A stretch of DNA of 64,000 nucleotides from an uncultured Phycisphaerales bacterium (GCA_963718665.1 OY970359.1:399514-463513), one strand, 5' to 3'; counted from the stretch's first letter, positions 3,348 through 54,770 are shown. The notes: a model not told the origin generated them from the letters alone. Made by a program: numbers and translations.

Positions 3348-4610
3348 ATGCTGACAGCACTTGAGCAGTATGACCCGCAAATATATGAACTTATAAGGCA
3401 GGAAGGCGCACGCCAGAGCGCCTGCGTCCGGCTGATCCCATCAGAAAACTACGTTTCCAAGGCGGTAATGCTGGCAAGCGGCAGCTGCCTGACCAATAAA
3501 TACGCCGAGGGATACCCGGGCAAACGGTATTATGAGGGACAGCAGATTACCGACCTCATCGAAACCATCGCCCGACAGCGAGCCATAAAGATTTTCAAGG
3601 CCGACCACGCTAATGTCCAGCCATATTCCGGCTCGATAGCGAACCTCGCGGCTTATATCGCGCTGGCAAAGCCCGGCGATACGATTATGGGACTTGCGCT
3701 GCCTCACGGCGGACACCTCACCCACGGCTGGAAAGTCAGCATGACCGGCAAAATCTTCAACTCAATGCAGTATGGCGTCAGCGCTGAAACAGGCAGGTTT
3801 GACTATGACCAGATCCGAGACCTGGCAAAGAAAAACAAGCCCAAAATCATAATCTCCGGCTGCACCGCTTATCCGCGAGAAATCAATTTCGAGATTTTCG
3901 GCGATATCGCCAAAGAGGTCGGCGCATATCACGTCAGCGATATCGCCCATATCTCCGGCTTAGTCGTCGCGGGTGTCCACAAAAGCCCGGTTCCCTACGC
4001 CGACATCGTTTCAACAACAACACACAAGACGCTGCGAGGCCCGCGAGGCGGAATGCTGCTCTGCAAGACCGAACACGCCGACAAAGTCGATAAGGCCGTA
4101 TTCCCCGGACTCCAGGGCGGCCCTCACATGCACACGATTACCGCGATTGCCGTCGCGCTGGCGGAAGCCGACACGACTGAATTTGTCGCTTACGCAAAAC
4201 AGATTGTCAAAAATGCAAAGGCGATGGCCGAGAAACTGCTCGAATGCGGATTTAATCTCGTATCGGGCGGCACCGATAATCACCTGATTCTCATCGATTT
4301 GAGAAACAAAAACATCCCCGGCAAAAAATTCGCCAAGGCGCTCGACCGAGCCAGAATCGAAACCAACTACAACACCGTGCCCAACGACCCCGCCCCACCG
4401 GCAAATCCGAGCGGCCTGCGAATCGGAACGCCCGCGATTACCACACGTGGTATGAAAGAAGAACAGGCCCGACTAATCGCGGAATATATAGGCAAGGTCG
4501 CCGAGAACATCGATAATGAATCGGTCATCGAGCAGGTCGCCAAAGACGTTCTGCTTTTGTGCTCGCAGTTCCCGGTGCCGGACCACTTCATTATTCCGAA
4601 CAGGAAATAA
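3348..4610 (+). CDS. glyA: Serine hydroxymethyltransferase
   Basis: 420 aa with SHMT hallmarks: LIPSENYVS, NKYAEGYPGKRYY, VSTTTHKTLRGPRGG (PLP-lysine region). Confidence 0.95.
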   Translation: MLTALEQYDPQIYELIRQEGARQSACVRLIPSENYVSKAVMLASGSCLTNKYAEGYPGKRYYEGQQITDLIETIARQRAIKIFKADHANVQPYSGSIANLAAYIALAKPGDTIMGLALPHGGHLTHGWKVSMTGKIFNSMQYGVSAETGRFDYDQIRDLAKKNKPKIIISGCTAYPREINFEIFGDIAKEVGAYHVSDIAHISGLVVAGVHKSPVPYADIVSTTTHKTLRGPRGGMLLCKTEHADKVDKAVFPGLQGGPHMHTITAIAVALAEADTTEFVAYAKQIVKNAKAMAEKLLECGFNLVSGGTDNHLILIDLRNKNIPGKKFAKALDRARIETNYNTVPNDPAPPANPSGLRIGTPAITTRGMKEEQARLIAEYIGKVAENIDNESVIEQVAKDVLLLCSQFPVPDHFIIPNRK

Positions 4611-7870: not shown

Positions 7871-8042
7871 TTCGCTCGCTTCAAAAACCTCATAAAACAG
7901 CAAATTTAAGGGCAAATAAAGCCATCCCAGCCAAAAATGCTATTTACTTGCCCCCTTTTTCAGGATATAATAATACTGCTGCATTGTTGGACTTGTAACA
8001 CCACACTCATCTCGAGAGGAACCGAAAAGGGGGCCAGTAACG

Positions 8043-10388
8043 ATGAAAAGAACGGCGTATATTTTGGCCGCATGCCTAATCGCAACCTTGGCATTCGGAA
8101 TCAATCGGGCAAATGCAACCACAATAAGCGGCATTTCACAAAACGCATCCACCATCGGCAGATATACCAAATACGAACTGACATTTACGCTTTCACGGAC
8201 ATATACAAACCCGTTCGACCCCTGCGTAGTTGACGTTATGGTAACGTTTCATCAGCCCGACGGGACCAACGTGAATATTCCGGGTTTTTATTACCAGGCA
8301 TATTCCACATCAGGAAGCAATCCTGAATATTATACTACAGCAGGCGCAATATCCTGGAAGGCAAGATTCGCACCTTCGCAGCTCGGCTCATATACCTGCG
8401 ATATCAAAGTCAAAGACGTGGATGGAACAACAACAGCAACAACCGCCGGCTCTTTTACCTGCCAGGAAAGCGGCAAAAAAGGGTTCATCAGAGTTGACCC
8501 CAACCAGCACGACTTTCTCAAATATACTAATGGCGACACGCGCATTAACATCGGCCAGAACATCGGCTGGAATAACGGCTCACTTCCTGGCGGCGGAATC
8601 GCTGGCTGGAATTATTTCCTCACAAAATTGCACAACGCAGGCGCAAACTGGGTGCGATTATGGTGCTGCACCTATGGGGCTGATTATGGAGTTGCGCTGG
8701 AATGGCCAATCGGATGGGGCAACAACTACTTCCAGGGCCCGGGAAAACCTTCCCTGCAAACCTCGCTTAGAATGGACGGGTATGTCGCAAGCGCAGAGCA
8801 AAACGACATCGCCATTCAGTTTGCCCTTCAGCATCACGGCCAGGTCAGCACAACCACAGATGCCGACTGGGCCTCCAATCCTTACAATATCGCTAATACC
8901 GGCGGTTTCCTCCCAGACCCCTGCAAATACTTCACCGACCCCTGTGCTATACAATTGACCAAAAACAAATACCGCTACATCGTAGCAAGATGGGGTTATT
9001 CGCCGGCAATTTACGCCTGGGAGTTATTCAACGAAGTTCAGTGGACCGATGGCTGGAATTACGACCAGTCAACCGTTGTAAACTGGCACAACATTATGTC
9101 ATCTTACATCCGCAGCATCGATGCGTTCAATCACCCCATTACTACCAGCAGTCATGAGCCAGGTTTCGAAAACATCTGGAATCTCCCCGATATCAATCTG
9201 GTTGAGAATCACTATTATGGAAATGATACTATCCAAGTGTTCGAGCAGACAGCCCTGACCCTAGCGGACTTCAATAAACCGGTGCTTATGGCCGAATTCG
9301 GATTAGGGGGCGGTCCCGAAGGAAGCCCTAACGAGCCGGAACCTTATGCGACACAATTAAAAGAAGGTCTGGAGATGCATAACGGCATCTGGAGCGCCTT
9401 CTTCGCCAAAAGCAGCGCGCATCTGTGGTGGTGGGACAATTATATCGACCCCTGCAATCTTTATGGCGTATATACGCCGCTTTCGATTTACGACGCCAAT
9501 GAGAATCTTGCCGACTGCAATTTAGTCAGGGCACAGCGAGCCGCCTCCGGAACCGAGGCGTATTTTGCAAATCCGGTCCTCACCGATTTCTGGGCGATAT
9601 CCGACCAGAATATATTTTATCTCAATGTGGATTACTTCCCCGGTATGGGAAACCTCTCTCAATGGCTTCAGGGTTCCTGTCAGCCAGCCCTCAAGTCAGA
9701 CCCCAATTTCCATTTGAATATGCCGACTGCCGGCTCTCTTAAAATCCACGTACAGAGTACCGCAAACTGGACCCCTAATATCCTGAGTGTGCTTGTGAAT
9801 GGAGGAAAGGTTTTTTCAGGAACATATCCTGCCGATTCAAACAATTTTATAATCTCGGTCCCCCTTTCGGCGGGCCAGCAATCCGTGCAGATTAAAAACG
9901 ATGGCAACGACTGGTTTGAAATAACCAGCTATGAATTCGCCCCCAATAACGTCTCGCCTCTGGGTTCTATGGGGCTTGTGGGCAAACAGCGGGGCTATTT
10001 CTGGATTTATGACACAAACAGTCAATACGGGCTTGTAAATAACGGAACTTTCCATAATCAACCCGTTATCGCCCAGGGACTCGACGACGGACTTTACAAC
10101 GTTTATGTTTATGCGACATGGGGCGCCGGAGGCATCATCAACTCAGGGACAGCCAATTCCGTAAATGGTCAGTTGACATATACACTTCCCGATTTCAGCA
10201 AGGATATCGCCGTCAAAGTCATCGGCGTTGTCGATATTTATGACCTCGACGCTTTTTGCAATTACTGGCTGCAGACAGGTTCGAACCTGAGTGCGGACCT
10301 TAACCACGACGGCAAGGTGGATTTCGCCGACTTCAGCACATTAGCCGGCTATTGGATGAACAACAGTCCCGGGAACTGGCCTTTTTAA
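8043..10388 (+). CDS. Secreted glycoside hydrolase (DUF5060-like N-domain plus GH5/DUF4038-like TIM barrel) with a C-terminal dockerin-like tag
   Basis: Signal peptide (MKRTAYILAACLIATLAFG). N-domain YTKYELTFTLSRTYTNPFDP...PGFYYQAY. AWELFNEVQW (the NE acid/base motif of clan GH-A). C-terminal DLNHDGKVDFADFSTLAGYW. Confidence 0.7.
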   Translation: MKRTAYILAACLIATLAFGINRANATTISGISQNASTIGRYTKYELTFTLSRTYTNPFDPCVVDVMVTFHQPDGTNVNIPGFYYQAYSTSGSNPEYYTTAGAISWKARFAPSQLGSYTCDIKVKDVDGTTTATTAGSFTCQESGKKGFIRVDPNQHDFLKYTNGDTRINIGQNIGWNNGSLPGGGIAGWNYFLTKLHNAGANWVRLWCCTYGADYGVALEWPIGWGNNYFQGPGKPSLQTSLRMDGYVASAEQNDIAIQFALQHHGQVSTTTDADWASNPYNIANTGGFLPDPCKYFTDPCAIQLTKNKYRYIVARWGYSPAIYAWELFNEVQWTDGWNYDQSTVVNWHNIMSSYIRSIDAFNHPITTSSHEPGFENIWNLPDINLVENHYYGNDTIQVFEQTALTLADFNKPVLMAEFGLGGGPEGSPNEPEPYATQLKEGLEMHNGIWSAFFAKSSAHLWWWDNYIDPCNLYGVYTPLSIYDANENLADCNLVRAQRAASGTEAYFANPVLTDFWAISDQNIFYLNVDYFPGMGNLSQWLQGSCQPALKSDPNFHLNMPTAGSLKIHVQSTANWTPNILSVLVNGGKVFSGTYPADSNNFIISVPLSAGQQSVQIKNDGNDWFEITSYEFAPNNVSPLGSMGLVGKQRGYFWIYDTNSQYGLVNNGTFHNQPVIAQGLDDGLYNVYVYATWGAGGIINSGTANSVNGQLTYTLPDFSKDIAVKVIGVVDIYDLDAFCNYWLQTGSNLSADLNHDGKVDFADFSTLAGYWMNNSPGNWPF

Positions 10389-47325: not shown

Positions 47326-47594
47326 ATGTGCGAACAATGCGGTTGCAACCACGATAAAACACAGGATGCCTTCGAGACGAAGGTCAAAGCGATAATCGAA
47401 GCCATCAGGCCGAATTTGCAAAGCCACGGCGGTGACGTCGAACTCGTCGCCACCGAAAAGGGCTCTACAGTCAAGGTCCGCCTTCAGGGCGAATGTTCCG
47501 GCTGCCCGGCGCAAGAATGACCCTCAAAATGGGAATCGAACGACTCCTCAAAGAAAAAGTCCCACAGGTCAAAGAAGTCATAGCGGTTGACTAA
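47326..47594 (+). CDS. NifU-like (Nfu C-terminal domain) Fe-S scaffold protein with the frame broken once
   Basis: IRPNLQSHGGDVELV...VKVRLQGECSGCP, then a stop. The expected continuation ..MTLKMGIERLLKEKVPQVKEVIAVD* is in the -1 frame. The break is at ccc/gg, 47505-47510. Confidence 0.75.
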
Positions 47595-48695
47595 AAATTT
47601 TAGACACGAATACGAAGAAGCATTCTCCCGGTTTGCGGACGCCCCGGCTGCGAGGGCCTTCGGGCTTGGCAGGCATGCGTTGTTCATATTGCTCAAAGCC
47701 CTCGATGTAAACCCCGGTGACAAAGTAGGCGTCTGTGCTTTTACGTGCCTGGCTGTTGTAGAAGCTATTAAAGTTTGCGAAGCAATCCCCGTATATCTCG
47801 ACATTGATGAATACCTCTGTATTGACCCGCATGAAATTCTTATACAGGATACCGGTTCTCTCAAAGTTGTGATTTTACAGCACACCTTCGGCAACCCGGG
47901 GCGATTCGAGCAGCTTCTGGCGGCCTGCAACAAAATCGGCGCAAAAGTTATCGAAGATTGTGCCCACTCGCTTGCGTGCACGTGGAACAATCAAAAATTA
48001 GGCAAATGGGGCGAAGGAGCCGTAGGCCAGGGAGGGATGTTGACCGTCAATTCAAGCGGCTTACTCGAAAAGGTTGACCGTCAAATCAAGCGGTTCGCTG
48101 CGCCCGCATCCAAAAAATCAGAATTTATTATTGTCTCCCTTCGGCGAGCATATCACCCGTTCAGTCAGTCGCGTCTCGATTGTTACCTCGGATATAACTA
48201 CTCCCGGCTGCGTAGTATGTTACATTTCAGGGGGAAATCTTTTCTGAAAAACAGCTTTCCTGAATGCGCGGATACCCCCGATTGGCCGGAGAAATAAAGG
48301 CAAAGGCGGGATTGAAACAAATCGAAAGCTGGCCTAAATTGCGGCAGATACGACTTCAAAATACCGCGATGATAGAGGAATCCTTCAGCAACGCTGGCCT
48401 GTCCCTTTGGCCCGTAGAACCTCAGGCAAACATCACAATGATGAGATACCCATTACGGGTATATAAGAAGTGGGAAATAGTCCATCGCGCAGGCATTCGA
48501 GGCCTCGACATCGCGGGCTGGTATTCCAGCCCCGTCCATCCGCTCAGTGATGCCGACCTCGCCAAAGTTGATTATCGCCGTGGCTGCTGCCCGAGAGCCG
48601 AAGGCACAATTGAACGATTAGTCCACCTGCCGACCGGCCCATCGCTCAATAAACACAAATTAGAAGCGATGATGAGAATATTAAACGGGGTTTAA
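47587..48695 (+). pseudogene. DegT/DnrJ/EryC1-like PLP aminotransferase, apparently degraded
   Basis: Pieces 47587..48297 and 48264..48695. The family blocks GDKVGVCAFTCLAVVEAI, VIEDCAHSL and GQGGMLTV are present. The segment that normally carries the PLP lysine between WGEGAV and GQGGML is missing, and there is a frame change at 48264-48297 (a C5 run sits at 48276-48280). Confidence 0.55.
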
Positions 48696-49075
48696 GATTG
48701 ACTATGGGCGAGGGCTAAGAGGACGAGGAAATAAGCCGTGAAAGATACGAAGGCGAGCAGAAAGCCGGCGAGGGCAGGGATTGCGGCTGCGAAACTGGTT
48801 TTGTTGCGCCGGCAGCGTATTAACGACAATATGGCAAAGGTTACAGATGCAGCAGGCAGAATGGCGCAGAGAGTGTGAACGGTGTTATAAAAAGGAGTTT
48901 CCCTCACAAGGCAAATATCGGTAGAGCTGTTGTGCAGGGCTATAATCCTGTGGATTGAGGCATAGAAAAGTGGTATCGCGGCGACGGCAAAAACGAGCGA
49001 AACGAGGCCCAGTCGGCTCGTCTTTGCACCGGGGCATACGGCTTCGATATTGTTTGTGTCCGGTTTTTCTGCCAT
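48692..49075 (-). CDS. Small membrane protein, hypothetical
   Basis: ATG at 49075 (MAEKPDTNNIEAV...) and four predicted TM helices. Confidence 0.5.
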   Translation of the reverse strand: MAEKPDTNNIEAVCPGAKTSRLGLVSLVFAVAAIPLFYASIHRIIALHNSSTDICLVRETPFYNTVHTLCAILPAASVTFAILSLIRCRRNKTSFAAAIPALAGFLLAFVSFTAYFLVLLALAHSQS

Positions 49076-49180
49076 TTTGGTTTCTCGTAGTTTATACGAT
49101 TGCCGGCGGCTATCGGCCCGGAAAATTATTCGCCACGGCAACGACCCCATAACCGCTACCCGCTGTTCACTAAATACAAG

Positions 49181-49193
49181 CGACTAACGACTA
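49181..49193. repeat. Left copy of a 13-bp direct repeat, cgactaacgacta
   Basis: Identical 13-mer at 49953-49965. With flanks, about 20/23 match. Overlaps the HNH-AP2 stop codon. Confidence 0.6.
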
Positions 49194-49784
49194 TCGACTG
49201 TCCGCTGTTTCTGGAAAATTTAACCTCGCAAATTCCCCGTGATATTTCTTCGCTGCTTTGTCGCGTGCTTTTGCCGCTTCTATCTCGTTTTTGAATCCGC
49301 CTATCCAGTAACTTTTCCCCTTATGCTTGATTTTAACAGCCCAGCGATTTTGTGCTTTCTCGTAAGATACCCCGATAAACCGCGATGTTGTCTTCGATTT
49401 GGTCTTTCGTTTGTTGCTCGAATTTTGTGCATGCGTCGCAAGACGCAGATTGTCCCTTCGATTATCTAACGACTCTCCGTTTTTGTGGTCAACAATTCGC
49501 CCCTTGGGTGCCCTCATAATCTCTCTGTGCAAATATACTGTTTTGGCTCCTCCCTTTTTGCTCCTGATGCCCCCTATGGCGTATGCTCTCCTTTCGTGAC
49601 CGCCTAAGCACCACTTGATATGTCCAAAGCGGTAATAATCCGCCGGCTCAACTGTCGTCCATTCCCCCTCGCCTAAATATATCCTGCGAAACTCATACCC
49701 ATATTTGTGCCTTCGATACAACATTACCGGCCAGGTGCAGATACGGTCTAACCAATTAGGTATCGTTACGTTAATCATTGTCAT
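49191..49784 (-). CDS. HNH endonuclease fused to an AP2/ERF-type DNA-binding domain (homing-endonuclease-like)
   Basis: YLHREIMRAPKGRIVDHKNGESLDNRRDNLRLATHAQN (HNH_3 pattern), then RFIGVSYEKAQNRWAVKIKHKGKSYWIGGFKNEIEAAKARDKAAKKYHGEFARLNFPE (AP2). Confidence 0.8.
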   Translation of the reverse strand: MTMINVTIPNWLDRICTWPVMLYRRHKYGYEFRRIYLGEGEWTTVEPADYYRFGHIKWCLGGHERRAYAIGGIRSKKGGAKTVYLHREIMRAPKGRIVDHKNGESLDNRRDNLRLATHAQNSSNKRKTKSKTTSRFIGVSYEKAQNRWAVKIKHKGKSYWIGGFKNEIEAAKARDKAAKKYHGEFARLNFPETADSR

Positions 49785-49952
49785 AATGTCCTCTCCCTTG
49801 CCCTCGACTCAAGCTCCATAGGAACCGCAATCGGGGGTCCATTTTTTCGGAGCGCAGCGCAGATCCTCGGGGTTAGCTCCTTTGGTCTTCTGCCGGGAAC
49901 CCATTTATTGTTCGTTGTTTATTGTTAGTTGTTCCTACAAACTATGAACCAA

Positions 49953-49965
49953 CGACTAACGACTA
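49953..49965. repeat. Right copy of the 13-bp direct repeat, cgactaacgacta
   Basis: See 49181-49193. Confidence 0.6.
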
Positions 49966-50086
49966 CAGATGATTTGCCTATCTTGGCGTGAAACTTGCCC
50001 TCCCGGGGCGAAATGTTTGCGCTTCTGCGCTACTACTGCCCTATCTTGGGCTTGCTACCTTGCGGCTCTCCGCTGCCTCTTTTTTT

Positions 50087-50181
50087 CGCCTGTTCTACTG
50101 CTCAACTTACTACTTTCCCGCGAAGCGCCGCCTGTTCTACTGCTCAACTTTCTACTCTCTCGCGAAGCGTCCCGCTTCGCG
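50087..50181. repeat. Tandem 41/42-bp direct repeat (x2) ending in a perfect 9-bp hairpin
   Basis: cgcctgttctactgctcaacttactactttcccgcgaagcg (50087-50127) and ccgcctgttctactgctcaactttctactctctcgcgaagcg (50128-50169). Hairpin cgcgaagcg-tcc-cgcttcgcg at 50161-50181. Confidence 0.8.
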
Positions 50182-50594
50182 CGTCCCTCTATATATAGAG
50201 TGATTTTGGGGGTGTTTTAAGGAGTTACGAAATATTTTTTTCCTGCCCAAAATCGGTAAGTTCTTGTAGGAAAAGGAATAAAAAAAATTTCAAAAATTCC
50301 CGGATTTTTTTGGGTATATAGGTAATCTCTAAAAAACAGGTTTAGCCGCCGCCGGCATGGCGGCTTCCTTATAATGTTTAGCCCGGCAACTTTATTGCCG
50401 GGTCATAAAAATTGTAAAACCAATTTTATCGCGACCTATCCGGCGTAGCGCAAGCGAAGTCGGAAACGCGGGGCGGGAAAAAACGGTTGCTGTCACCATT
50501 ATTCCCAACGGGGTTGGGTAAGTTGAAAACCCCCGGCAGAGAAATGTTTTTTTGTGAAAATAGGCGGTAGTTCTTAGTCTTCCTCTTTCGCATC

Positions 50595-51878
50595 TTACTG
50601 AGAGCGATCTTGGCTATCTTTAATTTTTGGCCAATGGCAATCTTTAAACTTTTTGCCACTGCCACAAGGACAAGGTTCATAAATTGAGACTTCTCTTTTT
50701 CTTACGACAAAATCCGCTTCTGAATCATCTAATGGAACTTGAGATGTATCTTTGGATATTTGAGAATTAACAAGATTCTTCATTCTTTCTACAAGTTTGG
50801 CTTCATCATCGCTTGATTTAGGTTCTATCCGCTTCCCACCAGGCTCCCAATGAGGAAAAAAACGTTTCCATAACTGGAAAGTAATAGATTTTCCATTCGC
50901 AGGAGGTCCAAAGCCATATTGTGCTCCCCATACATCTTTTCTATGCTCTCCTAGTTTGCCCCACTCATACGACAGATTCTTCAAGTCTGCCTTTAAATCC
51001 TCCCCGGCGACAAATGTTTGGTCGGAATTTAGGAATGTTCCAGCAATAGACTTATGAAAATTGTCGTTAGAAACAAAAACCATGCAAAATGGCAAATAAT
51101 AAATGTACTCTAAATCAATTTTATTAGTCGGCCTCGTTCCAATAAAGTTGCAAATCAATCCAAAGTAGAATAATACGAGGGCGTTAAAGCAGTAATATGC
51201 ATAGGGTGAGAAGTCTTTAATCAACTTATATTCGCCGCGTTCCCACCTAATAAAAACACGCTGAGCCATTGGAAAATCGATACCAAATTCCTCTATTAAC
51301 CAGACCAAAAGATTCGTTTGATTATTTTCCTGTGACAAGAATTTGTTTACATATTGGTGCAATTGTTCAACACTATCAAATTGTTTCAATACTTTAATTT
51401 TTTGTTTGGCCGTATTTTTAAAAAGTTCCAAGTCTAAAGACCTTGTCGATTCCCGCCATTGCTCAGAAAGAATGTTTTCCGCTTCTGTGAAATTGCCAGA
51501 TTTCCATTCATTAAGTGTTTTTTCTTCTGGCGAAACGTCAAATATTATCCCCTTCTTGCCAGAATCACCTTCCACAGGGACACCACCACCTATATAAGGA
51601 CGTCTTCTCATTTCCACCGGATACCCTAAAAGCGAATTTATAATCAGATATCTGTAATGTACGCTAATCGCTGAATCGAATGGCAGTATTTTGTTTACCA
51701 TACGCATTATTTGATCTTTGGAGACGGCTCCTTGCCTTGTTGGTTTTTTTAGGTCTCCAAGTATTTCTATGAGAAGGATCGGCGTTATATTTATAAAATA
51801 TAGTTTATTCAGAATAAATACCTCATCAAAAGAAAGTGACTGTAGTGCCGATTTGTCTAATATGATTGTTGGCCCCAT
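50595..51878 (-). CDS. Hypothetical protein C of the AT-rich operon: possible split PIN-like N-domain plus a C-terminal SEC-C zinc motif
   Basis: ATG at 51878 (alternative TTG at 51899). TIILDKSALQSLSFDEVFILNKLYFINITPILLIEILGDL and later MVFVSNDNFH resemble PIN acidic blocks. C-terminal CPCGSGKKFKDCHW. Confidence 0.5.
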   Translation of the reverse strand: MGPTIILDKSALQSLSFDEVFILNKLYFINITPILLIEILGDLKKPTRQGAVSKDQIMRMVNKILPFDSAISVHYRYLIINSLLGYPVEMRRRPYIGGGVPVEGDSGKKGIIFDVSPEEKTLNEWKSGNFTEAENILSEQWRESTRSLDLELFKNTAKQKIKVLKQFDSVEQLHQYVNKFLSQENNQTNLLVWLIEEFGIDFPMAQRVFIRWERGEYKLIKDFSPYAYYCFNALVLFYFGLICNFIGTRPTNKIDLEYIYYLPFCMVFVSNDNFHKSIAGTFLNSDQTFVAGEDLKADLKNLSYEWGKLGEHRKDVWGAQYGFGPPANGKSITFQLWKRFFPHWEPGGKRIEPKSSDDEAKLVERMKNLVNSQISKDTSQVPLDDSEADFVVRKREVSIYEPCPCGSGKKFKDCHWPKIKDSQDRSQ

Positions 51879-51985
51879 TATTACCCTATTTATTACCAAA
51901 TAATATGTGGCTGTTCCTATTTAATTAATCCGCAAAAATCCTATCGCGAGCTGTTCAATTAAAGAATCTTCAGAATATTCAGTAA

Positions 51986-52898
51986 TTACTCGCCATCTAA
52001 ACTATCTTGTGATAAGCATACAAAATTATCTAGTGACAATCTCATATGTTCTGAGATTATAATTTCGACGTGTCTTCTTTCAAAAAAGTCTTTGCCAAAA
52101 CAACACTCTTTTAATTTTTTACCGCTTCCGCAGGGGCAATCTTCATCGGCACCAGTGTCCTCAGCTATCTTGATTCTACGGGTGCTTTCCTCAGTACGAG
52201 AAATTCGTAATGGATTACACTTTTTAACAAACACTAAATCTTTAAGATACTCAACACCAGTAAAAGGTATCGACTTATTATTAATGGCCATCATCTTGCA
52301 TCTTTTGTCTGCTGGATTTTCTACCAAAGACACGCTGAGAAGATTCTTGATTTCCTTGACAATACCGTAGGCTAATTTCCCCCTATAAAGCTCCCCTGCT
52401 ATATGCTCGCACTCTAAGCTTTCCATATTCCTACCACAGATGCTGCAATCTACTCTACTCACAACAGCTTCAATGCTGGAAAAAACCTTGTAAGGATAAA
52501 GTTTTTCTAATGCCTGTGCTTGCCTTTCCAAAAATTTGAATAAAGAAGTTCTATCAAAATGCGAAAATCTTTTGAGCAAGCGGAGAGAATCCAAAACATC
52601 TTGTAGCGTATCCCACGATCCAGGATAAGAGCCAGCACAGATTTGGGACCAGTATTGGGCGTAGCAATTTAACAGAGAAGCAAACCTGTCGAAGATAAAG
52701 CAATCATTATAAAATTCGTCCGGACGATTATTGGTTCCGGATTTCTCGTAATCATTTACTAGGGCACAAGTTTTTCTGCGACTTGTTTGGCGGATTCAAA
52801 ATTTAAATTCGCCAACTCATTATAGTAGGACTCAAGGGTTCCTCGGCAATCAAGCCAATATTGTTGCAGACTCTCTGTTTTGAGCAAGATATTATCCA
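51986..52898 (-). CDS. Hypothetical protein B of the AT-rich operon: Cys/His cluster plus SEC-C zinc motif, frame broken once
   Basis: The ATG at 52898 overlaps the stop of protein A (ATGGATAA). My translation gives MDNILLKTESLQQYWLDCRGTLESYYNELANLNFESAKQVAEK, then the frame shifts at the T5/A5 run 52771-52775 into ...CALVNDYEKSGTNNRPDEFYNDCF...LDSLRLLK (track ORF 51986..52594). CSICGRNMESLECEH and CPCGSGKKLKECC. Confidence 0.55.
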
Positions 52899-53365
52899 TT
52901 TATGAAATCATTAATATCAAACTGTTTGATTTTTTTTAGCCCTTCGACAGGACCGTTATATTCGAATTTCTTAAACTTGCCTTTGTCTTTATAAATAACG
53001 TTTAGATGAGCCTTAGGGTCATCTTTTGAAAGGTCGCCTCGCACCATAGATTTAAGGTAGTCATAGACAAAGTTAAGAAAAAGCGGTAACGCAACGTTTG
53101 TCGCCAAGAAAACCATGGGAAGCCATATCTCGGACGATTTTAAATCGATTACGTTCTCACATGAACTGATTTTAACGCTTATTTCTGACTTGTTCTGTCT
53201 GAGCCATTTAGCGAATCTATAAGTATCTGGCTTTAGGACTTCATGACCTTTTCTAAAATTATCTTCTGCAGAAAGAAAGATACCATTAGAATTTTCGATG
53301 AATTCTTTGCATTCTTTGGCAGGTTCAATTTCTGCTAAGGTAAAAAGCTTTTTTTCGTTTTCCAT
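52892..53365 (-). CDS. Hypothetical protein A of the AT-rich operon: small single-pass membrane protein
   Basis: 157 aa. AAGGA lies 9 nt upstream of the ATG. One hydrophobic helix, IWLPMVFLATNVALPLFLNFVY. No family recognised. Confidence 0.55.
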   Translation of the reverse strand: MENEKKLFTLAEIEPAKECKEFIENSNGIFLSAEDNFRKGHEVLKPDTYRFAKWLRQNKSEISVKISSCENVIDLKSSEIWLPMVFLATNVALPLFLNFVYDYLKSMVRGDLSKDDPKAHLNVIYKDKGKFKKFEYNGPVEGLKKIKQFDINDFING

Positions 53366-53469
53366 AGGTTCGTTCCTTATATTTCAATTTCCCCGCTTAT
53401 CAGTTTCGGCAAAAGCAAAATCATATTTCAGACGAACCTAACTATCTGTAAACAGCGTTTTCCAGAACA

Positions 53470-53507
53470 GCAAAGTTGACGGGCAAAGGTGCGAATCTCT
53501 TCCGGCC
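53470..53507 (-). promoter_or_regulatory. Copy 2 of the conserved 38-nt upstream motif
   Basis: The minus strand reads ggccGGAAGagattcgcacctttgcccGTCAACtttgc, about 105 nt upstream of the protein A start. 34/38 identical to 44452-44489. Confidence 0.45.
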
Positions 53508-53642
53508 TTAAAAAAACGTTTTCACCAAACCCACTATAGATTTTCATAAACGAGGTATCAAATTAAAATCCATCCCTTTGGGATACCGCATTTTTACTTT
53601 TTACCTTTTACTTTTTGCCTTGAACAACCTACCCGCTACACG

Positions 53643-54770
53643 CTATCCGCTATTCTTAAGATGCTTTGCTATCCTGCTCGCGCTTGGCGCTTTTATCACT
53701 CCTCTTTCGGTGATAATCGCCGTGATGTTCTCCGCAGGCGTTACATCAAACGCAGGATTGTAAATATCAACGCCATCGGGCACTATCTTTTTAGTGCCCG
53801 TCTTGAGCGAAGTCGAAGGGCTGACTCCACCTATAAACCGAATCTCCTCCGATGGCCGCTGCTCGATAGGAATATCTTTACCTGTCTTTGTTTTCAAATC
53901 GAACGTGCTCGATGGCGCAGCGATATAAAACGGTATTTTGTGCGCTTTAGCAAGAACGCTCAGGGCATAAGTACCAGTTTTATTGGCTGCGTCGCCATTG
54001 GCGGCGATTCTGTCTGCCCCGGTGATGACCATATCTATTTTGCCATCCCTCATAAGCGCAGCAGCCATATTATCGCAGATGACCGTCGTATCGATTTTGG
54101 CCCGTTTCAATTCCCAGGCGGTCAATCGCGAACCCTGTAACAAAGGCCTTGTCTCATCGACAAAAACCGTGAATTTTTTGCCTCGTTTTTTCGCTTCATA
54201 CAAAACCGATAAGGCCGTGCCCTGCCCTGCTGTCGCCAATGCCCCCGCGTTGCAATGCGTCAATATCCCTGCTCCACTTTTTATGAATCTGGCGCCGTTA
54301 GCGCCGATTTTGCGGCACATCTCGATATCTTCCCGGCAAATATCATTGGCCTCTTTCAAAACCGCTTTGCAAAGCTCATCCAACGTCCCTGCCGAACTTT
54401 TTTCAGCGCATTTTACTATTCTTTCAAGTGCCCATCGCAGGTTGACAGCCGTGGGCCTGCTGCTCGCCAAGTATTCGCAATCCCGTTTCAATAACTTCAC
54501 CGCCAAGTTCGCAGAGTTTATTTTATCTTTTTCTCTGCGGTCTTTGCGAGCTCGGCGGTAAATATTTTTCTGTAATGCCAAAACCGCCCCATATCCCCCT
54601 GCTACCCCGATTGCCGCGCATCCCCGAACCGCCAATGTCTTTATCGCGCCATATAACTGCTTAACGCCTACACAGCGAATTATTTTATATTCCCCCGGCA
54701 GTTTCCTCTGGTTGATAATCTCCAGACAGCCATCGACCCCGCCAATCCATTTAAGCGTCTTTACCACCAT
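53643..54770 (-). CDS. mtnA: S-methyl-5-thioribose-1-phosphate isomerase (eIF-2B alpha/beta/delta family)
   Basis: LAVRGCAAIGVAGGYG, SSRPTAVNL, THCNAGALAT, ETRPLLQGSRLTAWEL, GADRIAANGDAANKTGTY, NPAFDVTP. Confidence 0.9.
   Translation of the reverse strand: MVVKTLKWIGGVDGCLEIINQRKLPGEYKIIRCVGVKQLYGAIKTLAVRGCAAIGVAGGYGAVLALQKNIYRRARKDRREKDKINSANLAVKLLKRDCEYLASSRPTAVNLRWALERIVKCAEKSSAGTLDELCKAVLKEANDICREDIEMCRKIGANGARFIKSGAGILTHCNAGALATAGQGTALSVLYEAKKRGKKFTVFVDETRPLLQGSRLTAWELKRAKIDTTVICDNMAAALMRDGKIDMVITGADRIAANGDAANKTGTYALSVLAKAHKIPFYIAAPSSTFDLKTKTGKDIPIEQRPSEEIRFIGGVSPSTSLKTGTKKIVPDGVDIYNPAFDVTPAENITAIITERGVIKAPSASRIAKHLKNSG

Follow-up and report, generated by a model that had tools for sequence, protein, structure and literature searches.

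The window, which is the whole stretch of DNA that we analysed, comprises 64,000 nucleotides (nt) from an uncultured Phycisphaerales bacterium (GCA_963718665.1 OY970359.1:399514-463513), and our subject is a group of three genes, here named A, B and C, that lies within its positions 50595-53507. All three are encoded on the minus strand, between mtnA (53643-54770) and a gene for an HNH-AP2 protein (49191-49784). A preliminary description of this DNA had already given their common direction, the limits of A and C and the 107-nt spacer between B and C, all of which we could reproduce, and it had also proposed that A and B are coupled: the two reading frames overlap by 8 nt, which implies translational coupling. 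The start of C was set at the ATG that is common to all its homologues ('MGPxIILDKS'), rather than at the upstream TTG returned by the open reading frame (ORF) finder.

The stretch had been called AT-rich and foreign-looking, and computed values agree. The G+C content (GC) of 50595-53507 is 37.5%, compared to 50.5% in the remaining window, which is the minimum among all segments of the same size and lies about 4 standard deviations under their mean, while the GC of third codon positions is 33-35% in A, B and C versus 50-66% in mtnA, uvrA, ilvB and the HNH gene. The compositional anomaly of the A-B-C stretch is real. For both A and C, NCBI has a protein of 100% identity from Sedimentisphaerales (Planctomycetota) metagenome-assembled genomes (MAGs); that of A is P0188, a hypothetical protein encoded on a 2.6-Mb contig of such a MAG. 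Neither flanking direct repeats nor a tRNA gene could be recognised convincingly as island borders, and an Rfam scan of 49000-54000 detected no RNA family. Promoter and terminator scans of the locus gave signals at chance level only; the term 'operon', used in the preliminary description, is not borne out.

B had been presented as an intact ORF, with a hint at a break in the advice to correct its frame before analysis, and it is indeed interrupted. From the ATG at 52899, B is open for 46 codons, until a stop codon is reached at 52759 (5' piece, 52759-52899), and the homologous frame then resumes at ~52766 in another reading frame and continues to 51986. An intact allele is carried by L261 (JGI 3300069939), a 2079-nt metagenome contig that shares 95.6% DNA identity with positions 50936-53013 of the window; this B protein (P0121) has 296 residues and its stop codon is placed differently from that of the window gene (304 residues). 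A global alignment of the two B genes contains one single internal gap, after nucleotide 132 of B (~52768 in the window), where the context changes as CTTGGCGCC -> CTTGT-GCC, outside any homopolymer (GGCGCC -> GT-GCC). This -1 frameshift suggests that the A-B module is non-functional in this genome, and probably inactive in the window, unless it is an assembly error.

The comparison with L261 also separates B from C. The B genes share 92.6% of their nucleotides, with 31 synonymous and 27 nonsynonymous codon differences, whereas the C genes share 98.9%, with 8 synonymous and 2 nonsynonymous codon differences, their proteins being 99.4% identical. B has therefore diverged about 7 times more than C, indicating that the two halves of the islet have different histories and that the islet is a mosaic. 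Since L261 is 95.6% identical to the window, it represents this islet as carried by a related strain and is no independent occurrence of the A-B-C order.

Table 1. Features of the A-B-C stretch; positions are counted from the first nucleotide of the window
Feature	Position	Strand	Description	Basis
Gene A, partner of B	52892..53365	-	157-residue small protein	ORF call
Gene B, zinc/SEC-C protein	51986..52899	-	~304 residues, frameshifted	homologues and alignment
Gene C, stand-alone	50595..51878	-	427 residues; alpha/beta core, helical insert and C-terminal SEC-C motif	
A stop/B start overlap	52892..52899	-	8 nt (ATGGATAA)	ORF coordinates
B-C spacer	51879..51985	-	107 nt; proposed boundary of two modules	kept in L261; divergence jumps across the spacer
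Deletion in B	52766..52769	-	1 nt, relative to the intact L261 allele	global alignment and blastn
A, central hydrophobic segment	53054..53122	-	residues ~82-104 (LPMVFLATNVALPLFLNFVYDYL); putative single transmembrane helix	hydropathy
B, CxxC-x8-CxH cluster	52403..52447	-	C152, C155, C164, H166; presumed structural zinc site	invariance
B, SEC-C motif	52100..52138	-	CPCGSGKKLKECC	PF02810, 24.6 bits
C, first core half	51534..51878	-	residues 1-115; strands 4-7, 28-31 and 69-71; D8-K9-S10, E38, D42	conservation and DSSP on the model
C, insertion	51144..51530	-	residues ~117-245; all-helical (helices 117-242)	model
C, second core half	50943..51143	-	residues 246-312; helix 250-259 (D255), strand 267-270 then S270-x-D272, strand 288-291	conservation and model
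C, SEC-C motif	50634..50672	-	CPCGSGKKFKDCH	PF02810, 32.4 bits

A and B recur together far beyond this islet. An A-like gene, encoding 146-179 residues, stands immediately upstream of B in 12 of 12 distinct contexts (the window and 11 others), with junctions that either overlap by 4-8 nt or leave a gap of at most 17 nt (as seen in loci L005, L253, L254, L262, L265, L089, L086 and L259); in an Acinetobacter record, the annotated A and B overlap by 53 nt. Across these contexts, identity drops to 27% for B and to ~24% for A. A first search with A gave 7 matches only; diverged A-like proteins were then found beside every B homologue examined, and a hidden Markov model (HMM) of the close A homologues, scanned against ~4800 small ORFs, retrieves the distant partners (E = 6e-22 in L255, 2e-17 in L253, 2.5e-7 in Enterobacter and 4e-3 in Acinetobacter). 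Judged by sequence and gene order, A-B is a conserved two-gene module, predicted to be translationally coupled.

The preliminary description had judged the setting to be of a defence or abortive-infection type, and the homologous loci fit this picture: A-B is found near genes of a cyclic-oligonucleotide-based anti-phage signalling system (CBASS) and near Mrr-nSTAND3, KAP/RES, AbiE, FRG and restriction-modification (R-M) genes, and C is found in R-M operons. Among the metagenome loci, L255 places A-B next to a CD-NTase with Cap15 (CBASS), a group II intron and AAA_21-RloB, L253 next to an RHS toxin, Mrr_cat-nSTAND3 and a Mu-type transposase, L265 next to HxsD/radical-SAM, KAP NTPase, RES and SF1 helicase genes, and L089 next to DUF4062 and HTH genes; in L262, B is 66% identical to that of the window and the gene downstream of A-B is unrelated, in L264 the neighbours are housekeeping genes and in L086 none is defence-like. 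On plasmids, the neighbours are FRG/PDC-S15, Abi and toxin-antitoxin genes (L259, an Enterobacter IncF plasmid) or AbiEii, an AAA ATPase and YafQ (L260, from Acinetobacter). In Phycisphaerae, the pair stands after groEL, together with an MmeI-like R-M gene in L001-L004 and with no defence-like neighbour in L005. These Phycisphaerae pairs (L001 6134-7468; L005 6083-7510) are preceded by genes for two membrane proteins, one of 93 residues with two hydrophobic segments and one of 342-363 residues whose N-terminus weakly resembles PADLOC PDC-S35 (E = 2.9e-5), and the whole insert directly follows groES-groEL. The 342-residue and 93-residue membrane proteins were considered as parts of the module and rejected, because neither the window nor any of the other A-B loci has them.

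The enterobacterial version of A-B is present in 211 plasmid records, mostly conjugative, and in 24 of 5426 complete E. coli genomes, and it also occurs at an E. coli prophage end. A block consisting of an ISLad2 transposase, a 267-residue TPR protein, an FRG protein (PADLOC PDC-S15), the A-like and the B-like gene is identical between the prophage end and conjugative plasmids (L263 5265-10265 on the E. coli CX12 chromosome; L259 1645-6645 on the Enterobacter IncF plasmid). On the CX12 chromosome, this block lies just past the prophage holin, lysozyme and DUF2514 genes, and HipBA adjoins it.

A had been described as a single-pass membrane protein, and hydropathy supports this: there is one central hydrophobic segment, with a 19-residue Kyte-Doolittle maximum of 1.82, which is kept in 11 A-family members, whose maxima at the aligned position range from 1.3 to 2.3 and exceed 1.6 in 10 of the 11. 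The A-like proteins thus fit a putative single transmembrane helix, by hydropathy.

B belongs to a family of at least 371 clusters at 50% identity (E <= 1e-30), nearly all of whose intact members have 280-305 residues. As had been noticed from the sequence, both B and C carry a SEC-C zinc motif, and both score above the Pfam gathering cut-off of 20.4 bits for PF02810 (Table 1); in each of the two families, the ligand cysteines show little or no variation. B also has the CSICG...CEH cluster pointed out in the preliminary description, whose four zinc-ligand-like residues (C152, C155, C164 and H166) are invariant in 44 homologues and which opens a beta-rich domain. An AlphaFold2 model of the intact P0121, based on the family alignment, is confident (predicted local distance difference test score, pLDDT, 93.2; predicted template modelling score, pTM, 0.89) and starts with a bundle of helices at the N-terminus (residues 9-134), after which comes the beta-rich domain; this domain has long hairpins and holds, besides the zinc site, the SEC-C knuckle and the motifs 'GELYRGK' and 'NPADKRC'. 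A Foldseek search of this model, made against the PDB only, gave a best E of 1.7. Residues 142-199 of B (~52304-52477) match phrog_16951 (312 residues, function unassigned) with E = 1.1e-6, which suggests that the zinc/beta domain of B occurs in some phage proteins. No B homologue was detected by tblastn in 50,697 phage records, and when metagenomes and viral sequences were scanned with the B alignment, the peptide pattern of SEC-C prevailed and the matches were at motif level only. Since B has no catalytic-looking constellation of residues, we read it as a binding or sensor protein.

C behaves differently from the A-B pair. Its family comprises more than 544 clusters at 90% identity in a word-indexed search and spans more than 15 phyla, including Planctomycetota, Bacteroidota, Ignavibacteriota, Cloacimonadota, Hydrogenedentota, Acidobacteriota, Alphaproteobacteria, Patescibacteria and archaea. 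The SEC-C motif is missing in roughly half of the full-length homologues, as estimated with a crude regular expression, and some members have other C-terminal extensions, so that the conserved unit of C consists of residues 1 to ~370. The proposal that A, B and C form one system did not survive a co-localisation check: neither A nor B was found within 10 kb of a C homologue in any of 80 genome loci (tblastn, E < 1e-3), and C was found in none of the 11 independent A-B contexts. The only A-B-C adjacency outside the window is that of the near-identical L261, and the closest diverged homologues of C (63% and 50% identity) have different neighbours. By these comparisons of sequence, C is independent of A-B.

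Nor does C have a universal partner of its own: a blast clustering of 988 ORFs near its homologues yielded small clusters only. In six Bacteroidota genomes, the gene order is hsdM-hsdS-C-PDC-M04A(DUF3800)-PDC-M04B-hsdR, with C co-oriented and, in several of them, overlapping hsdS by 4 nt. Two contigs, the 'viral' status of which is an IMG/VR label only, have related arrangements: in L252 (C at 8001-9284), the order is hsdM-hsdS-271-residue protein-C-Piwi/pAgo (764 residues)-296-residue protein-hsdR, and in L251 (C at 8001-9278), C is preceded by GmrSD/HNH and then a type III R-M pair (N6_N4 methylase and ResIII helicase). Other immediate neighbours of C include TIR, CHAT, DUF4238, GmrSD_N and AbiEi genes and a PhD-PIN pair, and integrases are present in 11 loci.

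In the preliminary description, C was thought to contain the acidic blocks of a PIN-like nuclease split by a large insert. One part of this proposal stands: the alignment columns of D8, K9, S10, E38, D42, K63, D255, S270 and D272 show no variation among 37 sequences (36-63% identity), and on an AlphaFold2 model made with the family alignment (pLDDT 87.3, pTM 0.87), D8 comes right after strand 4-7, strand 28-31 is followed by a helix with E38 and D42, and strand 267-270 leads into D272. By conservation and strand position, C has the four acidic residues expected of the PIN-like superfamily, and the order of elements (b1-a-a-b2-a-a-b3 ... hairpin and helical insert, residues 100-245 ... a-b4-a-b5) is compatible with a PIN fold. 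The other part, a recognisable match to PIN domains, gained nothing from the searches. The Foldseek search of the model retrieved none of the many PIN structures of the PDB and no other match either (best E = 0.6 in the PDB and 0.35 in BFVD), and the large insert may defeat an alignment of the full model. Pfam gave no PIN at E <= 1 with the full C and nothing at E <= 10 with 22 insert-deleted cores, and hmmsearch against PDB sequences with the full or the insert-deleted alignment gave no PIN. When four insert-excision variants of C were compared by hhalign to a four-sequence VapC/FitB reference, assembled from PDB alignments, the probability was at most 10% (P = 0.003-0.03 over ~35 residues); the 3.1 Mb of homologue loci yielded just one PIN protein for a larger PIN alignment.

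Side by side with VapC/FitB PIN domains (PF01850), C has several local resemblances: an N-terminal strand that leads into an invariant Asp (IILDKS versus LLDTN), an invariant Glu in the helix past strand 2, a late helix with an invariant Asp (D255), the 'ILPFDSA..HY..LI' stretch that recalls 'iLPfD..aA..Ya.i' of VapC (ILPFDSAISVHYRYLI in C versus ILPFDEPVAAIYAQI in VapC/FitB), and a strand followed by S-x-D-x-F in place of T-x-N/D-x-x-F (FVSNDNF versus LVTRNSGDF). Unlike VapC, C is three times as large, has no antitoxin partner and contains an insertion of ~130-150 residues. A PIN domain split by an insert is thus a reasonable hypothesis on sequence and model grounds, the safer description being that C is a putative metal-dependent hydrolase with a conserved acidic cluster.

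The preliminary description had recognised no family for the three proteins and no named system, and database searches agree. A has no match in Pfam, NCBIfam, PADLOC or PHROGs; in the same collections, B gives only SEC-C and the weak phrog_16951 match, and C only SEC-C. In PADLOC-DB v2.0.0, B and C match the E2, E1-E2 and PDC-S12 models only over the ~25-residue SEC-C motif, which is explained by the SEC-C-like knuckle contained in the E2 and E1-E2 models. PADLOC gave no match either for the A and B versions of Enterobacter, Acinetobacter, L253 and L255, or for the C homologue of L020. A literature search (SEC-C/SecC in defence, WP accessions, PDC-M04/DUF3800) retrieved no paper on the A-B pair or on the C family, the only relevant system being Rugutis.

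Altogether, we consider it probable, at roughly 0.6, that the 3.3-kb low-GC islet between mtnA and the HNH-AP2 gene is horizontally acquired accessory DNA that juxtaposes two unrelated, uncharacterised candidate defence-island-type modules, A-B and C. We further infer a defence role, an assignment of sensor and effector and a nuclease activity, and we hold each mechanistic step less firmly than the overall picture. B, which has no catalytic signature, would probably be the sensor or regulator, and A, by analogy with other systems that have small transmembrane effectors, may act on the membrane, as the effector in a pair of the abortive-infection or toxin-antitoxin-like type. C could be a self-contained metal-dependent, possibly PIN-like, nuclease effector, as its residue conservation and its R-M-embedded position suggest; its active site would be made of D8, E38/D42, D255 and D272, the ~130-residue helical insert that splits the core might gate this acidic site, and the optional C-terminal SEC-C knuckle might serve as a tether or recognition element.

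Several observations weigh against this interpretation. The families are known from sequence, models and gene context alone, the association with defence neighbours is qualitative and comes without a background rate, and the A-B contexts of L005, L086 and L264, like the majority of those of C, are no obvious defence islands. Beyond the SEC-C-motif matches, no A, B or C family is found in PADLOC v2, and the nuclease reading of C gains no fold or profile match. The hydrophobic helix of A holds a conserved polar residue and one member scores only 1.30, so that this helix could be buried instead of spanning a membrane. Finally, B is frameshifted locally, so the local copy may do nothing.

A bolder version of the two-module interpretation remains tentative, and we would put it at clearly less than even odds: A-B would be a new and widespread two-gene anti-phage system with unmatched folds, in which a membrane effector is controlled by a zinc/SEC-C sensor, while C would separately represent a new R-M-embedded family of single-protein defence nucleases with a highly derived, insert-split PIN-like core, the SEC-C motif being maybe a shared tether, for instance to ribosomes or nucleic acids, much as the zinc domain of SecA attaches to SecB and to ribosomes.

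The first alternative is that the islet is a decaying remnant without current function, in which B is a true pseudogene. The position of the frameshift outside a homopolymer and the many nonsynonymous differences of B relative to L261 (27 against 31 synonymous, compared to 2 and 8 for C) speak for it, and for B it is a possibility to be taken seriously, if not the one that we would choose. It is possible for B only, as A and C are intact and C has kept 99.4% protein identity with L261 through changes that are mostly synonymous. Even for B, the high synonymous divergence points to recombination beyond decay alone, and an indel error in the MAG assembly is a live alternative. A DegT/aminotransferase-like gene ~4 kb away (<5 kb) is also split, into overlapping ORFs of different frames on the plus strand (47587-48297 and 48264-48695); this second frame break near that of B makes indel errors possible in this long-contig MAG assembly.

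The second alternative, that the genes are mobile-element cargo unrelated to defence, appears unlikely to us. A-B would then be an addiction (toxin-antitoxin) or membrane-stress module with a stabilising effect on plasmids or islands, which would fit its frequency on conjugative plasmids, its travelling with ISLad2 and its classical toxin-antitoxin neighbours (GNAT/DUF1778, HipBA and YafQ), and C would process RNA or DNA on behalf of R-M operons or of the element itself, in line with its 4-nt overlap with hsdS, its co-orientation with R-M genes and the integrases of 11 C loci. However, toxin-antitoxin and defence roles are not exclusive, chromosomal A-B pairs stand beside CBASS, STAND and KAP/RES genes without plasmid functions, and C is mostly chromosomal and outside R-M operons, with one partial match in plasmids and none in phage records. 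Last, that A, B and C make up one three-component toxin or defence system of a membrane protein, a zinc-binding partner and a PIN-like nuclease is very improbable: the genes are co-directional, tightly packed in one low-GC islet and in the same order on L261, and B and C both have SEC-C, but L261 is merely a variant of the same islet, all 80 C loci lack A and B within 10 kb, 11 of 11 other A-B contexts (including L262) lack C, B and C differ ~7-fold in divergence and SEC-C is a short and promiscuous zinc knuckle that about half of the C homologues do without.

The surroundings of the islet have features of their own. The HNH-AP2 gene directly downstream is homing-endonuclease-like, and in another Sedimentisphaerales MAG (L054), a 56%-identical HNH-AP2 gene (3731-4351) also lies directly downstream of a low-GC islet (GC 31-41%), a different one that contains a gene for a 212-residue protein and a distant homologue of C that lacks SEC-C. 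Upstream of each HNH gene there is a 34-nt stretch that the two loci share at 88% identity (49974-50007 in the window; 3515-3548 in L054), and this shared arrangement may be an integration hotspot or a piece of a mobile unit. Of the 'iteron-like repeats' mentioned in the preliminary description, what exists is a 41-nt unit in two tandem copies (50087-50169, 93% identical, spacing 42) within the 800 nt that separate C from the HNH-AP2 gene; neither further copies nor an Rfam match were found.

If the two-module interpretation is true, two sizeable families that are listed only as 'hypothetical' or 'SEC-C domain-containing' in present annotation would turn into components of defence, with new folds, and C would join PDC-M04 and pAgo as a class of genes inside type I R-M operons. 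We regard the whole as a candidate, not a discovery, and its interest is mainly that A-B is widespread, structurally unmatched and not in a 2023 defence catalogue; A-B is also directly testable, as intact versions, such as the E. coli pair WP_016239970/WP_016239971, occur among complete E. coli genomes (24 of them), at the end of a prophage and on plasmids of the IncF type. The islet further illustrates that unrelated modules can make up a mosaic that looks like a compact 'operon' of uniform composition, in which case an adjacency-based annotation from a single genome would mislead.

The nearest experimentally supported analogue of B and C, compared by description, is Rugutis, a single-gene antiphage system of a lactococcal plasmid that encodes a 359-residue protein, the sole recognisable feature of which is an N-terminal SEC-C motif and the confident model of which has no structural neighbours (PMC11381338). 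In B and C, the motif is instead near or at the C-terminus. Among the plasmid matches of B or C obtained by tblastn in our PLSDB copy, no named record is from Lactococcus, two of the organisms with B matches being unnamed and the presence of Lactococcus plasmids in that copy being unconfirmed.

A-B also resembles two-gene systems with small transmembrane effectors, such as CBASS of the Cap15 type, in that a small, putatively single-pass membrane protein is coupled to a larger cytosolic partner in defence islands; pairs of a lipoprotein or transmembrane protein such as Fliodhais and PD-Lambda-6 are further two-gene systems of this small-transmembrane type (PMC11381338). A-B differs from the small-effector systems in having no sequence or fold relationship to them and no signalling enzyme, and A would be an effector by analogy. 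Through their CxCxSGx8C[H/C] knuckle, B and C match YchJ and the C-terminal zinc domain of SecA in PDB sequences (E = 1e-5 to 1e-6), a similarity limited to ~20 residues of motif, the rest of B and C being unrelated. As to genes embedded in R-M operons, C differs from them in that it matches no PADLOC model and that ~90% of its loci are outside such operons; in 7 loci, it takes the same position between hsdS and hsdR as PDC-M04/DUF3800 and, in L252, pAgo.

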